Virus record (IMG/VR): IMGVR_UViG_2534682108_000014
Location: 1 to 14,290 of that record
DNA: 14,290 nt
Origin: a virus
Taxonomy: Duplodnaviria; Heunggongvirae; Uroviricota; Caudoviricetes
Reading direction: 5' to 3' (one strand)
The position numbers and the translations under genes were made by a program. Shown here piece by piece: positions 3,020-9,952 of the stretch (its first letter is position 1; every line of letters starts with the position of its first letter). Below the pieces are notes generated by a model that was given only the letters and a program-made list of their open reading frames with translations, was not told where the DNA came from and did not search any database.

Positions 3020-4455
3020 CAGAATCCTCCTTTCTTCTTGGACTGCGGTTCCTCGCGTTCACGGCGGCGCATTTCAGCAGACTGTTGGTCTGTGTCATAA
3101 ATAGCGCCATTTGCCTGAATGCAATACACCGTGCCGGTATTGCCATGACGATTGAGGCGAAGGATTAGTTCGGTTTCACCAGGTGGAACACTGTCATCAA
3201 AAGCACCTTCACGATGGATCCCCACCCAATAATCGCAATCCTGTTCAATCTGCCCTGTATCTCGTGAGTCACTTGGTAATGGGCGTTTATTGGTTCGGCT
3301 TTCCAGTGCGCGGTTAAGCTGTGTCAGAAGCACAACAACGCAATCAAGCTCTTTGGCAAGGTTCTTCAGTCCTTTGGTGATCATGCCGTAAGCAAGGTCG
3401 TTGCGATCGGCCTTTTCAGCGGTCATTAGTGTCAGGTAATCGACCAGAATCATGCCAACACATCCTTTTTCTCGCTTGATTCGACGGCTTTCGCTGACGA
3501 TTTGAGCCAGAGATAATCCCGGCGTGTCGTCAATGTAAAGCAGGTCGATTTCACTCAAGCGATTGGCTGTTTCGATCGCCCTGTTGAAGTCACCATCGTA
3601 ATCACCCTGATAGCCGTCATCAGCGTCATTTGTCGCCGGAAGGTAAAAAATATTCGGGTTAACACCTGACTTCTGTCCTACCAGTTTTTCCAGTATCTGG
3701 TCACCGGGCATTTCAAGGCTGAACATCAGAGCGGGCTTTTTCTCATGCACTGCGCAGTTGATTGCCATCTGGCTGTATAGCGTCGTTTTCCCCATCTTAG
3801 GGCGAGCGCCAATGACAAACAGAGAGCCTTTCACCAGACCTTTCGGTGACAGCATCCTGTCCAGCGATGGGATCCCTGTGCTCATTCCTCGTTGTTCGCC
3901 TGACGGGTCAAATCGCTTCTCAAGGTCGCTAACCCAGTCTTCCATGACCTCACCAAATGAGCGAAGGCCGCGACGCGATCCGGTTTTTGCATGGTCTGTC
4001 AGTTGCGTGAAAATCGCCTGAATAGCTTCGTACTTCTGCGTTGCAGTCATTCCGTTGCGGGAATAGAGCAATTCCGTCGCTTCAGTCATGCGGTTGATGG
4101 CGTAGCGTTCCATTGCGGTTTCACGAACCTGCATTGCATAGGCAACGATGTTTGCTGCGCTTGGCGTGTTCTTTGCGATCTCAGCGATATAAGCAAAACC
4201 GCCAACAGACACCGTTAACGATTTACGCTCCAGTTCATCGAAAAGCGTCAGGCCATCTACTGGCTTTTGCTCACGGTGCATTCTGGTTATTTCTTCGAAA
4301 ATGATTTTGTGTGGTCGGCTGTAAAATGAATCAGGCTTCAGCATCGCCAGGACTTTCTGGACGCGCTCACTGCTGTCATCATCCAGAAGCAATCCACCAA
4401 TCACCGCCTGCTCTGCCTCGATGCTATGGGGCGGCGCATAAAAATTATCGGTCAT
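3019..4455 (-). CDS. Replicative DNA helicase, DnaB family (phage P22 gene 12-like), about 478 aa
   Basis: Walker A GARPKMGKTT, Walker B-like ILVDYLTLM, and DnaB-type N-terminal SIEAEQAVIGGLLLD. ATG at 4455 is preceded by GAGGGTG; the track start at 4470 is a GTG extension. Confidence 0.93.
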   Translation of the reverse strand: MTDNFYAPPHSIEAEQAVIGGLLLDDDSSERVQKVLAMLKPDSFYSRPHKIIFEEITRMHREQKPVDGLTLFDELERKSLTVSVGGFAYIAEIAKNTPSAANIVAYAMQVRETAMERYAINRMTEATELLYSRNGMTATQKYEAIQAIFTQLTDHAKTGSRRGLRSFGEVMEDWVSDLEKRFDPSGEQRGMSTGIPSLDRMLSPKGLVKGSLFVIGARPKMGKTTLYSQMAINCAVHEKKPALMFSLEMPGDQILEKLVGQKSGVNPNIFYLPATNDADDGYQGDYDGDFNRAIETANRLSEIDLLYIDDTPGLSLAQIVSESRRIKREKGCVGMILVDYLTLMTAEKADRNDLAYGMITKGLKNLAKELDCVVVLLTQLNRALESRTNKRPLPSDSRDTGQIEQDCDYWVGIHREGAFDDSVPPGETELILRLNRHGNTGTVYCIQANGAIYDTDQQSAEMRRREREEPQSKKKGGF

Positions 4456-6170: not shown

Positions 6171-6821
6171 ATGAAAACTCAATTGATGGGAGAGCGCATT
6201 CGCGCTCGGAGAAAAGAACTCAAGATCAGGCAGGCCGCACTTGGAAAGATGGTCGGCGTGTCTAATGTTGCCATATCTCAGTGGGAACGCTCTGAGACAG
6301 AGCCAAATGGAGAGAATCTTCTCGCCCTGGCTAATGCGTTGAAGTGTTCCCCTGACTATCTGATGAAAGGAGAGGAAAGTCTTTCAAACATTGCCTATCA
6401 CAGTAGGCATGATCCAAGAGGGTCATACCCTCTGATTAGCTGGGTGAGCGCAGGATGCTGGATGGAAGCTGTAGAACCATATCATAAGCGTGCAATAGAT
6501 AACTGGTACGATACAACCGTAGACTGTTCAGAAGATTCGTTTTGGTTGGACGTGAAGGGAGACTCAATGACGGCTCCGGCCGGTCTCAGTATCCCTGAAG
6601 GAATGATAATACTCGTCGATCCTGAAGTAGAGCCGCGTAACGGGAAACTGGTAGTTGCAAAGCTCGAAGGAGAAAACGAGGCAACTTTCAAGAAGTTAGT
6701 TATTGATGCAGGCAGGAAGTTTCTAAAACCACTTAACCCACAATATCCGATGATCGAGATCAACGGAAACTGCAAAATCATCGGCGTAGTTGTCGATGCA
6801 AAACTAGCAAACCTTCCATAA
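6171..6821 (+). CDS. c2: Prophage repressor, P22 C2-type (216 aa), LexA-like autocleavable
   Basis: MKTQLMGERIRARRKELKIRQAALGKMVGVSNVAISQWERSETEPNGENLLALANAL... matches P22 C2 near-identically from memory and has the same length. N-terminal HTH, Ala-Gly cleavage region, and C-terminal S24-type GDSM serine with a downstream lysine. Confidence 0.96.
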   Translation: MKTQLMGERIRARRKELKIRQAALGKMVGVSNVAISQWERSETEPNGENLLALANALKCSPDYLMKGEESLSNIAYHSRHDPRGSYPLISWVSAGCWMEAVEPYHKRAIDNWYDTTVDCSEDSFWLDVKGDSMTAPAGLSIPEGMIILVDPEVEPRNGKLVVAKLEGENEATFKKLVIDAGRKFLKPLNPQYPMIEINGNCKIIGVVVDAKLANLP

Positions 6822-7027: not shown

Positions 7028-7339
7028 AACCAAAGAGTAGTTGGCTTTGGGGTGACGTGAAGTGCAGCTGCACGACGGCAACCGGAAGATAAGCACCCGG
7101 CGCGTCACCGCCAAAGTCAATTCCATAGGCGAAATGCAGCCGCCAAACACAGCCAATGCTGCACATGCAACAGGAGGATTTATGTGAATGCATAACTTCA
7201 AAACCGAGGTTAATTAAATCTCTCGATCCGAGCATTGACCTATTAGGTGGCGAGATGCTCTTTCTGCCCCTCAGTTCGAGGGGCCAGAAACCACTTTGCA
7301 ATCACTATCAATTCCAAAGTTGTTTCATCGGAGGTCAAC

Positions 7340-7612
7340 ATGACAGTAGTCATTACATATCTGGCTGACGATAACGCCAGAAATCGCCGCAGAGCACGCA
7401 GACAGGCTCAACGTGAACAGGCAATGCAAGAGCAGCGACTGACGCGAAAAATTGCGCTAAAGCTCTCTGGTTGCGTCAGAGCAGATAAAGCAGCATCACT
7501 CGGAAGCCTTCGCTGTAAGGAAGAAGATGAACGCAGTGGAAGTATTTGCCTGCCAAACGTAGCCATTTACGCGGCAGGATACCGGAAATCAAAACAACTG
7601 ACGGCGAGGTAA
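7340..7612 (+). CDS. 24: N-like transcription antiterminator (P22 gene 24-like), 90 aa
   Basis: From ATG 7340 (RBS GGAGG): MTVVITYLADDNARNRRRARRQAQREQ... with an N-terminal arginine-rich motif, and a C-terminus LPNVAIYAAGYRKSKQLTAR resembling P22 gp24 as I recall it. Lies downstream of PL/nutL. The track start at 7247 is an upstream extension. Confidence 0.85.
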   Translation: MTVVITYLADDNARNRRRARRQAQREQAMQEQRLTRKIALKLSGCVRADKAASLGSLRCKEEDERSGSICLPNVAIYAAGYRKSKQLTAR

Positions 7613-7615
7613 GTG

Positions 7616-7840
7616 ATGAATCAGACATACATTCCATCATGCTTGAGAAATCTGCCAAAGCAGAAAGCAAAGCCCCGCAAGCAAGCCATAAAGGACGCTA
7701 AGGCAGAGGTTATTGATCAAGCAATACAATTGCTCAGGGAGGAGTTAAGAAGTGGCAAGCTCGAAGGAATGATGATGCCATATCAGCGCGGATATCTATC
7801 GGCGATTAGTAAGTTGGAAGTATTGAAGAGTGAATTATGA
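7616..7840 (+). CDS. Hypothetical protein (74 aa), lysine-rich N-terminus
   Basis: ATG at 7616 begins 4 nt after the N stop, with GAGG 7 nt upstream. Same strand as the PL operon. No family recognised. Confidence 0.55.
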   Translation: MNQTYIPSCLRNLPKQKAKPRKQAIKDAKAEVIDQAIQLLREELRSGKLEGMMMPYQRGYLSAISKLEVLKSEL

Positions 7841-7902
7841 ACTATCTGGAATTTCCGGATGGTTCATTGTTTTGGCAGCAAACCACTTATTTGAGGTGAT
7901 AT

Positions 7903-8154
7903 ATGGAATTTCATGAAAGTGCGATTTGTGATTTTCGCGCTAACGCAAATTCAGTAAAACAACAGCCAATTGCAGTTCTTTTTAAAACAATGGGTGCGTG
8001 GGCTGTTTTATGCTTCGCCGCTGACGACACTGACGCAAGAATGGCAATAGGCCAAGAGATGGAGATGGATCCGACAAACGATGAATTCATAATTTATGGC
8101 GCTCCATCTAATTACTTACTTGATACCTGCAACATTTACAACAAGGCTGCCTGA
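7903..8154 (+). CDS. Hypothetical protein (83 aa)
   Basis: ATG at 7903 preceded by GAGGTGATAT. Acidic, cysteine-containing, no recognisable motif. Confidence 0.55.
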   Translation: MEFHESAICDFRANANSVKQQPIAVLFKTMGAWAVLCFAADDTDARMAIGQEMEMDPTNDEFIIYGAPSNYLLDTCNIYNKAA

Positions 8155-8213
8155 TGGTGGTCTTTATTTTTTAGCCGTAAATAATTTCATGCTTATTACA
8201 ATCAAGGTGATAT

Positions 8214-8579
8214 ATGGAAGAACAAGCAAACAAGATTCTCGTAGAACTACTGCAAAAAGCCAGCAATGGAATAGACGCGGCTGTTTCATTTAGCCAGGCA
8301 CAGATTCCTGATGTCATCCATCAGCTTTTGATGTGGCACGCCGTATCATCAGCTGGAATTCAGGCTATCTGTGTATTGGTGATTATAGCGTGTGTTTATC
8401 TGATGATTTTTGCATGGAATAAAGGAGATGATGCAGATATTGTTCTTTCATCACTACTTGTCACATCAGGAATAGCGATTACTTCTATTGTTGTTTTCTT
8501 CAATTATTTCGACTGGCTGAAAATTTGGCTTGCTCCAAAACTTTACCTTATCGAATATGCAGCATCATTGGTTAAGTAA
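8214..8579 (+). CDS. Hypothetical membrane protein (121 aa) with two predicted transmembrane helices
   Basis: ATG at 8214 preceded by AAGGTGATAT. Hydrophobic segments AGIQAICVLVIIACVYLMIFAW and LLVTSGIAITSIVVFFNYF follow an amphipathic N-terminal region. Confidence 0.6.
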   Translation: MEEQANKILVELLQKASNGIDAAVSFSQAQIPDVIHQLLMWHAVSSAGIQAICVLVIIACVYLMIFAWNKGDDADIVLSSLLVTSGIAITSIVVFFNYFDWLKIWLAPKLYLIEYAASLVK

Positions 8580-8638
8580 TTTCAGGACGCATAGTCGGCC
8601 TTTATTTTTGGCACAAACAACAGAATAAACACTGCACT

Positions 8639-8666
8639 GTGTATTCATTCCAACGAGTGAATACAC
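8639..8666 (+). other. Long hairpin / inverted repeat (12-bp arms, 4-nt loop) in the intergenic region upstream of the c3-like gene
   Basis: GTGTATTCATTC-caac-GAGTGAATACAC gives 12 pairs counting one G-U in RNA (one mismatch as DNA). No U-tract follows, so it is not an intrinsic terminator. Confidence 0.5.
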
Positions 8667-8728
8667 GGAGCAATGTCGCTCGTAACTAAACAGGAGCCGA
8701 CTTGTTCTGATTATTGGAAATCTTCTTT

Positions 8729-8754
8729 GCCCTCCAGTGTGAGGGCCTTTTTAT
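8729..8754 (+). terminator. Rho-independent terminator within the PL operon, upstream of the c3-like gene
   Basis: GCCCTC-cagtgt-GAGGGC followed by CTTTTTTAT on the plus strand. Confidence 0.6.
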
Positions 8755-8818
8755 ATGCATACCAATAACGCTTCACTCGAGGCGTTTTCGTTATGCAATC
8801 AAATATAAGGAGTTACCC

Positions 8819-8953
8819 ATGATGCACTTTCAGTTCGCGGGTAGCGGCGTCATGTCCGCTTTCTACCCGCACGAATCTGAATTATCACGCCGAGTTAAAC
8901 AATTAATAAGAGCAGCAAAGAAACAACTGGAGGCGTTATGCGCAATGAAATAG
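8819..8953 (+). CDS. c3: CIII-like small protein (44 aa), putative FtsH-inhibitor that would stabilise CII
   Basis: From ATG 8819 (RBS AAGGAG, 5-nt spacer): MMHFQFAGSGVMSAFYPHESELSRRVKQLIRAAKKQLEALCAMK. This shares the lambda CIII pattern AG..V...P.ES.L.R...L.....K.L as I recall it. The track ORF starting at 8714 spans the terminator and is rejected. Confidence 0.5.
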   Translation: MMHFQFAGSGVMSAFYPHESELSRRVKQLIRAAKKQLEALCAMK

Positions 8954-9090
8954 CCATCAATCACCAGATGCTTCGTGCGGCACAAAACAAAGCAGTAATA
9001 GCCAGATTTATTGGTGATTCCAAAATGTGGCTTGAAGCAAATAAAGCGATGAAATCAGCTATCAACCTTCCGTGGTATCGCAGGAAATGA
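8938..9090 (+). CDS. Small hypothetical protein (50 aa), in the kil/arf position of P22-like phages
   Basis: ATG 8938 with GGAGG 4 nt upstream, overlapping the c3-like 3' end. Translates MRNEIAINHQMLRAAQNKAVIARFIGDSKMWLEANKAMKSAINLPWYRRK. Below the ORF-track cutoff; positional inference only. Confidence 0.4.
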   Translation: MRNEIAINHQMLRAAQNKAVIARFIGDSKMWLEANKAMKSAINLPWYRRK

Positions 9091-9245
9091 GTTTTACAGA
9101 TAACTGGTCAGACGAAGAATTCATTCGTCAGATGAAAGAATTAATCGGTAACGAAGGAGATATTCATGTCACTTGCAACCACAGTGAAGGAGAGCAAGTT
9201 ACAGAGACGCATGTACACGCAGAAAGCTCTCTGGTATCGCCATAA
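9087..9245 (+). CDS. Small acidic hypothetical protein (52 aa)
   Basis: ATG 9087 overlaps the preceding stop (ATGA), suggesting coupling; the RBS is poor. Translates MSFTDNWSDEEFIRQMKELIGNEGDIHVTCNHSEGEQVTETHVHAESSLVSP. Confidence 0.35.
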   Translation: MSFTDNWSDEEFIRQMKELIGNEGDIHVTCNHSEGEQVTETHVHAESSLVSP

Positions 9246-9346
9246 TGGCGACCGCGAAGGAATGCGGGTATGCCTTAATTTGTCCCGAGTCGAAGTATTA
9301 AATCAGCGTTATTTCCTTGGGCCTTGTCCATTCTGAGAACAAACAT

Positions 9347-9952
9347 ATGAGCAAAGAATTTTACGCAAGACTGGCTGCTATTCAGGAGAATCTGAACGCG
9401 CCAAAAAATCAGTACAACTCATTCGGCAAATATAAATACAGAAGCTGCGAAGATATTCTTGAAGGCGTTAAGCCGTTACTGAATGGTCTGTTTTTATCAA
9501 TCAGCGATGAAGTTGTGTTGATTGGTGATCGGTATTACGTGAAAGCCACGGCAACTATTACCGATGGCGAAAACAGTCATACGGCAACCGCTCTTGCACG
9601 AGAGGAAGAAAGCAAGAAAGGAATGGATTCTGCACAAGTTACGGGAGCCACAAGCTCTTATGCACGCAAGTATTGCCTCAATGGTTTGTTCGGCATTGAT
9701 GATGCGAAAGATGCAGATACCGACGAGCATAAACATCAGCAGAACGCAGCAGCAAAGCAATCAAAACCATCACCTACACCTGAACAGGTTCTAAAAGCAT
9801 TCACTGACGCAGCATTGCAGAAAAACACCGTGGAAGAGCTTAAACAGGCGTTCGCCAAAGCGTGGAAGATGCTCGAAGGCACACCGGAGCAGCACAAAGC
9901 GCAGGACGTTTACAACATCAGACGAGACGAATTAGAAGGAGCTGCTGCTTAA
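9347..9952 (+). CDS. erf: Erf, essential recombination function protein (single-strand annealing protein), 201 aa
   Basis: From ATG 9347: MSKEFYARLAAIQENLNAPKNQYNSFGKYKYRSCEDILEGVKPLLNGLFLSISDEVVLIGDRYYVKATATITDGENSH... matches P22 Erf closely from memory. The track start at 9317 is a TTG extension. Confidence 0.9.
   Translation: MSKEFYARLAAIQENLNAPKNQYNSFGKYKYRSCEDILEGVKPLLNGLFLSISDEVVLIGDRYYVKATATITDGENSHTATALAREEESKKGMDSAQVTGATSSYARKYCLNGLFGIDDAKDADTDEHKHQQNAAAKQSKPSPTPEQVLKAFTDAALQKNTVEELKQAFAKAWKMLEGTPEQHKAQDVYNIRRDELEGAAA

Follow-up and report, generated by a model that had tools for sequence, protein, structure and literature searches.

Probable homologue of the lambda PreS small RNA gene in the tL2 region upstream of cIII, and the conserved hairpin at its 5' boundary

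We analysed a 14,290-nt stretch of Caudoviricetes DNA, hereafter the window (IMG/VR record IMGVR_UViG_2534682108_000014), and found that its 239-bp gap upstream of cIII, positions 8580–8818, is very probably the tL2 region of a lambdoid PL operon, carrying the gene of the small RNA PreS (LPR1). Judged by its sequence, the gap is the two lambda spacers ral–ea10 and ea10–cIII joined together with ea10 absent, and therefore a tL2b-type hairpin and the cIII ribosome-binding site follow directly 3' of PreS and tL2a. The original prediction had flagged the gap for its hairpin and terminator, and had not recognized it as the known lambda tL2/PreS region. The flagged hairpin lies outside PreS as cloned in lambda. 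We infer that it is an RNA structure belonging to the PreS cassette, and we tentatively propose, by analogy, that it acts as a processing signal setting the 5' end of the 88-nt PreS.

The gap is bounded by the stop codon of the upstream ORF (8577–8579) and by the cIII ATG at 8819, and it belongs to a + strand operon of the lambdoid early-left (PL) type. The annotated + strand genes are an S24/HTH repressor (6171–6821), an N-type antiterminator (7247–7612), a 121-amino-acid ORF (phrog_3054; 8214–8579) that is the last gene upstream of the gap and occupies the position neighbouring PreS that ral holds in lambda, cIII (8819–8953; PF08134, E = 1.5e-29; ribosome-binding site AAGGAG at 8807–8812), and Kil (8938–9090); the operon also includes several small ORFs. 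The PreS homologue described below is thus placed in the PL operon between N (7247–7612) and cIII (8819–8953) on the + strand, the location expected of PreS. The linker ATAGTCGGCCTTTATTTTTGG (8591–8611, + strand) is a recurrent mosaic joint and is homologous to the lambda sequence directly 3' of the ral stop codon. Short direct repeats (AGGTGATATATGGAA; GGTCTTTATTTTT/GGCCTTTATTTTT; TAAATAATTTCA/TAAGTAATTTCA) flank the 8214–8579 cassette at 7894–8219 and 8573–8609, as expected for mosaic joints. ORF 7903–8154 was considered as Ral and rejected for lack of protein similarity; its 3' end resembles the end of lambda ral, its protein is unrelated to Ral, and a terminator-like hairpin lies at its end (8143–8172). 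The window holds a second 14-bp hairpin, ATGAACTATCTGGAATTTCCGGATGGTTCAT, at 7837–7867, just after ORF 7613–7840; it has a T-rich tail and a position comparable to that of tL1 after N.

Alignment of the gap with lambda gave 96.4% identity between 8591–8756 and lambda 34087–33923 in the ral–ea10 spacer, and 97.5% identity between 8757–8795 and lambda 33522–33483 in the ea10–cIII spacer. Phage HK106 shows the same arrangement as the window, with a rho-independent terminator annotated at the same place. The gap found matches in 2,252 of 5,426 complete E. coli genomes, at up to six places per genome. Folding of the + strand of the entire gap against shuffled sequences gave z = −6.4. No Rfam family, including DicF, AgvB, AsxR and STnc100, matched the window at or above its gathering threshold, and at 8400–9000 the covariance models returned chance-level hits alone (E > 4).

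PreS was described by Silverman et al., who applied RIL-seq to lambda-infected E. coli and recovered LPR1, renamed PreS, as an Hfq-enriched small RNA located between ea10 and ral, with the known terminator tL2a as its 3' end (bioRxiv 10.1101/2024.10.31.621285). In this preprint, northern blots show bands of ~88 and ~68 nt, the latter stronger, and PreS is present in the lytic cycle only, appearing after induction and absent from the lysogen. Through its single-stranded seed, the RNA acts on host mRNAs, raising dnaN translation and lowering alaS, each confirmed by compensatory mutations; deletion of the seed leads to less phage DNA replication and less spontaneous phage release (bioRxiv 10.1101/2024.10.31.621285). 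Conservation in ~2,500 genomes is reported in the same work. The cloning primers define the lambda gene: the lpr1 clone (primers P810, P1103 and P1104) starts with GAGCAATGTCGCTCGTAACT and ends with CCTCCAGTGTGAGGGCGATTTTTTA, the stretch deleted in lpr1-delta-seed (P970/P971) is TGTTCTGATTATTGGAA, and the full-deletion primer P969 ends in ...GAATACACG, with lpr1 starting at the next base (bioRxiv 10.1101/2024.10.31.621285). The lambda PreS 5' end, equivalent to window position 8668, is based on band size and on these cloning boundaries, no mapped end being given in the accessible part of the preprint.

Placed on the window, these boundaries set the start of the PreS homologue at 8668, its end at 8746–8754 and its seed at 8703–8719; we annotate the homologue at 8668–8753 (+ strand) on the basis of its identity with lambda lpr1. 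Positions 8668–8746, which span PreS from +1 through the terminator stem, are identical to lambda 34011–33933 (79 of 79 nt) and to HK106, and include lpr1 from GAGCAATG to GAGGGC as cloned. The seed (8703–8719, + strand) is identical to the stretch TGTTCTGATTATTGGAA removed in lpr1-delta-seed, and in silico the window PreS and the E. coli dnaN leader, as given in the primer table of the preprint, form a duplex that includes the 10-nt core UGUUCUGAUU/AAUCAGAACA. On every testable point (position in the operon, homology to lpr1, seed and 3' terminator), the sequence identifies the window locus as a member of the PreS family. By this identity with lambda, the locus would give rise to an Hfq-bound lytic RNA of ~88 and ~68 nt, and the ~68-nt form would start near 8686–8688.

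The original prediction had suggested that the hairpin could be the 3' structure of a small RNA. A small RNA gene is indeed present, and the hairpin is not its 3' structure: PreS starts at 8668, the last paired base of the 3' arm, and ends at the downstream terminator. The original prediction was right that the hairpin is not itself a terminator, and the intrinsic terminator that it placed in the gap proved to be real.

This terminator (8729–8754, + strand), the tL2a homologue, would serve as both the 3' end and the Hfq module of PreS. Its 6-bp stem (8729–8734/8741–8746) contains five G-C pairs and encloses a 6-nt loop, and the tail C UUUUU AU comes next at 8747–8754, with its U tract at 8748–8752; our terminator scan recovered it among five terminator-like sites in 7800–9400, where 1.4 were expected. 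Its U tract reads C-UUUUU-AU in the window versus GA-UUUUUU-A in lambda, one U shorter, and termination and Hfq binding could therefore be weaker; the tail 3' of the stem is CUUUUUAU in the window versus GAUUUUUUA in lambda. A second terminator-like hairpin, absent from the original prediction, lies at 8767–8786 (8767–8774/8779–8786, then UUUCGUU) within the homologue of the ea10–cIII spacer (8757–8795, + strand). The two hairpins are homologous to lambda 33950–33925 and 33512–33490, respectively, and their U tracts begin at positions aligned with lambda 33930 and 33494. The classical lambda map presumably places tL2a at ~33930 and tL2b at ~33494, so that hairpin 8767–8786 would occupy the tL2b position. 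Of these two labels, tL2a alone is confirmed by the accessible part of the PreS preprint (bioRxiv 10.1101/2024.10.31.621285).

We then turn to the flagged hairpin. Its arms, originally placed at 8639–8650 and 8655–8666, were confirmed; as RNA, the core stem in fact comprises 14 continuous pairs (8637–8650/8655–8668), two of them G·U, closed by the loop CAAC (−17.7 kcal/mol). Folding and the inverted-repeat scan add two 3-bp extensions to this core, giving on the + strand an extended helix of 20 bp at 8629–8676 with two 1×1 mismatches (−24.2 kcal/mol, z = −6.1). These 20 pairs correspond to the length of an RNase III helix, some two turns (~20 bp) with interruptions allowed. The hairpin is the longest inverted repeat of the window. 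When the window was shuffled 200 times by mononucleotides, 7 of the shuffles had a stem of at least 14 bp, G·U pairs allowed; the stem length is therefore only mildly unusual, and the case for the hairpin beyond chance rests on its conservation. The folding energies of the two strands differ little (−24.2 versus −22.5 kcal/mol), and the non-Watson-Crick positions in the 14-bp core stem and in the 11-bp core stem of the alternative hairpin described below are all G·U on the + strand.

Because lpr1 begins right after the end of P969, the 3' arm of the 14-bp stem ends at PreS +1. The PreS boundary thus falls within the hairpin: G8668, the first PreS nucleotide, pairs with C8637, and the lower helix uses PreS nucleotides 2–9. 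Just 5' of the hairpin, at 8613–8632, the sequence is rich in A and C (CACAAACAACAGAATAAACAC) and contains several A-R-N triplets; within it, positions 8621–8628 are complementary to the PreS seed in its 5' half. Masking of the seed by this upstream sequence in a precursor was considered and set aside: folding predicts pairing of the seed's 5' half in all contexts, the mature forms included, and so allows no conclusion on masking.

To follow the cassette in other phages, IMG/VR was scanned with the PreS seed and then with the hairpin, yielding 116 full copies (101 distinct). Among these, 8634–8747 is conserved at 92–100%, except for the terminator-loop base 8737 (62%), and identity drops to ~25–70% in the flanks of this core. 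The hairpin is nearly unchanged in ~96 of the 101 distinct copies, in line with the conservation in related phages that had been proposed as a check. True covariation was not found in the common hairpin of these copies; the hairpin is essentially invariant, and covariation analysis is therefore uninformative. At least 10 unrelated sequences are found upstream of the same core of hairpin, PreS and terminator, and downstream of it at least 6 different contexts, which include ea10, cIII via the tL2b hairpin, and several others. Mosaic breakpoints cluster at ~8591–8597, ~8634, 8668 and ~8747.

The remaining five of the 101 distinct copies (six loci) carry at the same position an alternative hairpin of unrelated sequence, CTATAGCAGATTTACGAGTCTGCTATG. 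Its stem has 11 bp (11–13 bp; −12.4 kcal/mol) and ends 1–2 nt before GAGCAATG. It always accompanies one particular ORF on its upstream side, and only 5 nt separate the stop codon of this ORF from the hairpin. Another copy (L157, region 729–754) carries G8667A and A8669U, which turn a U·G pair and the A·A mismatch into Watson-Crick pairs and make the stem perfect over 18 bp, with PreS nucleotides 1–5 as part of it. Among the 123 matches to the hairpin, one full-length locus is without PreS (L130). In this locus (minus strand, ~4270–4430), the hairpin plus GGAGCAAT is joined directly to the leader and gene of a lambda-type cIII, with neither terminator present. At two loci (L128 and L133), the PreS body and seed are joined, from the equivalent of 8724, to a different intrinsic terminator, GCCGCTCTATATGGGCGGCATTCTTTT, that replaces the tL2a hairpin. 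Inside PreS, recurrent point variants of the IMG/VR copies were seen at 8687, 8697 and 8713. The seed variant A8713G (GATTGTTGG) falls within the part of the RNA that in lambda pairs with alaS, and might shift target choice.

A scan of genome contigs for divergent relatives was of no use for this purpose, returning mostly lambda-identical contaminant contigs. These are low-coverage contigs, some of ~48.4 kb (L137–L140, L143–L149, L151–L153 and L156), contained in assemblies of unrelated bacteria, among them Pseudoxanthomonas, Shewanella, Pseudomonas, Kitasatospora, Bradyrhizobium and Neobacillus. The complete ones are identical to lambda, or differ by 1 nt, over the 150-nt stretch checked; they look like lambda DNA contamination and not like real prophages.

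How PreS obtains its 5' end bears on the role of the hairpin. An own promoter for PreS was considered and rejected: our promoter scan found no sigma-70-like site in the gap (8580–8818), and no −10 element was seen by eye in either hairpin type. The original prediction had likewise seen no convincing sigma70 promoter and had considered PL the probable source of any transcript, a view that is most likely right, as lambda PreS appears only after induction. Because the gap has no promoter-like site and PreS is found only after induction, PreS is probably excised from the PL transcript. The accessible part of the PreS preprint makes no mention of the flagged hairpin or of the origin of the PreS 5' end (bioRxiv 10.1101/2024.10.31.621285).

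We therefore describe the proposed pathway in conditional terms. PL transcription across the region would yield PreS, as shown in lambda and carried over to the window by identity. By analogy with known RNase III sites, RNase III-type cleavage where the 14-bp stem has its base would create the 5' end of the 88-nt PreS; the half-hairpin left on the upstream mRNA would shield it against 3' exonucleases, and the 68-nt form would subsequently be produced by RNase E. Mature 3' ends would arise through termination by polymerases without N modification, or through trimming of read-through RNA to the terminator hairpin. As in lambda, the product would bind Hfq via its terminator and U tail and act on host mRNAs via its seed, and the increase in dnaN translation together with the decrease in alaS would help the phage to replicate its DNA during the lytic cycle.

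That the hairpin sets the 5' end of the 88-nt PreS is a tentative proposal, plausible and short of an even chance; a role for RNase III in it is possible and would fit the 20-bp helix. The fuller version, which we put forward with a little more reserve, is that the hairpin may be an exchangeable, structure-specific RNase III signal that frees PreS and caps the upstream mRNA, with lambdoid phages swapping hairpins and terminators around a fixed small RNA; among the IMG/VR copies, both the hairpin and the terminator occurred in two types. Against a processing role stand the 11 bp of the alternative hairpin, short for a classical RNase III site, and the retention of the hairpin in L130 after PreS was lost. 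The invariance of the common hairpin, which leaves no true covariation, the definition of the lambda 5' end by band size and cloning boundaries, and the small difference in folding energy between the strands count in the same direction. The alternative hairpin travels with one upstream ORF and may therefore belong to that gene and not to PreS. This linkage, with the stop codon only 5 nt before the hairpin, and the L130 deletion both speak for the main rival, namely that the hairpin is only a 3'-end stabilizer or insulator of the upstream message, blocking 3'-to-5' exonucleases once a cut has been made downstream and taking no part in the making of PreS. Intercistronic stem-loops that stabilize upstream mRNA are well established, which also counts in its favour. 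However, the common hairpin stays with PreS in at least 10 unrelated upstream contexts, with a mosaic joint just 5' of it at ~8634, and its lower helix is built from PreS nucleotides, exactly the helix that the L157 substitutions improve. We regard such a purely protective role as unlikely, if still a serious contender. Next comes the idea, improbable in our view, that the conserved core mainly serves, at the DNA level, as a linker for recombination between exchangeable lambdoid gene modules and that the hairpin has no function of its own. The clustering of breakpoints (~8591–8597, ~8634, 8668 and ~8747) and the short direct repeats around the neighbouring cassette would suit a linker, but a pure linker need not fold, and an unrelated strong hairpin is found at the same position. 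Moreover, the adjacent PreS is known to be functional in lambda (bioRxiv 10.1101/2024.10.31.621285), and this alone explains the conservation, which recombination would then exploit.

The occurrence of an unrelated-sequence hairpin at the same place in some phages also disfavours the dimeric protein-binding site offered in the original prediction. The 12-bp arms, the 4-bp spacer and the high conservation would be compatible with such a site, but its mismatches are G·U-compatible on the transcribed strand, there is no nearby promoter to regulate, and we know of no lambda genetics that maps a protein site there; we consider it highly improbable. The same low standing applies to a small protein encoded in the gap, for which a 31-amino-acid ORF (8673–8768) starting inside PreS offers an ATG with GGAG just upstream. 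The spacing between GGAG and ATG is only 2 nt, the ORF crosses the terminator hairpin, its C terminus differs with every downstream context, and the recurrent substitutions include the non-synonymous C8697T and A8713G; in addition, the lambda RNA acts by base pairing, as established by compensatory mutations (bioRxiv 10.1101/2024.10.31.621285). Taken together, these findings speak more for an RNA structure than for a sequence-specific DNA site, and they link this structure to the 5' boundary of PreS.

The PreS locus of the gap is already known from lambda PreS and tL2a, since conservation in ~2,500 genomes has been reported and the gap itself matches 2,252 of 5,426 E. coli genomes. The small RNA, its terminator and its wide conservation are already described for lambda, and the window copy therefore adds little to them. 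What our analysis adds is that the PreS locus is a portable cassette of hairpin, small RNA and terminator found in many gene contexts, that this cassette can stand directly before cIII, with PreS and tL2a followed by a tL2b-type hairpin, and that a strong hairpin is always present at the 5' boundary of the small RNA, even where its sequence has been replaced. The exchange of hairpins and terminators around a fixed small RNA body is, like the cassette architecture, new but minor. The analysis also yields a concrete, testable hypothesis for the excision of PreS from the PL transcript, a step not found in the accessible part of the preprint. Our literature search, made with the sequence itself and with the tL2 names, returned only the PreS preprint and one review; the older literature on lambda PL processing was outside its reach, and a processing site at the flagged hairpin may possibly have been mapped there already.

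Among known systems, an AgvB-like anti-GcvB sponge, prompted by the CA-rich stretch 8613–8632, was rejected, as AgvB lies at the PR' moron site and gave no Rfam match; the Pas small RNAs of EPEC were also rejected, because their genomic contexts (RusA/TerB, Q/LpxR and structural operons) differ. The RNase III hairpins of phage early mRNAs, such as those of the T7 R1.1 type, the lambda N leader and sib, resemble the flagged hairpin as ~20-bp interrupted helices in early polycistronic transcripts; in these hairpins the product end coincides with an internal mismatch on which an upper stem of 12–14 bp is based, as it likewise would in the folded model here. In contrast to them, cleavage is here only proposed, and the alternative hairpin has only 11 bp. 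DicF, encoded in the dicB operon of the Qin prophage, is a short Hfq-dependent small RNA that stems from a PL-like operon of a lambdoid prophage and acts on host mRNAs, and its release from the polycistronic transcript involves termination together with processing by RNase III as well as RNase E. The mode of working is similar, but there is no sequence or Rfam match to DicF, the targets differ, and RNase III makes the 3' end of DicF, not its 5' end. Compared with the lambda tL2 cluster, the two terminators are 38 nt apart here, whereas in lambda ea10 lies between them, and the tL2b-type U tract is one U shorter here. With lambda PreS itself, the window locus shares the seed, the hairpin immediately 5', the position in the PL operon and the pairing with dnaN, whereas its upstream neighbour is the 121-amino-acid ORF in place of ral, and the distance from PreS is 13 nt to the tL2b-type hairpin and 65 nt to cIII.
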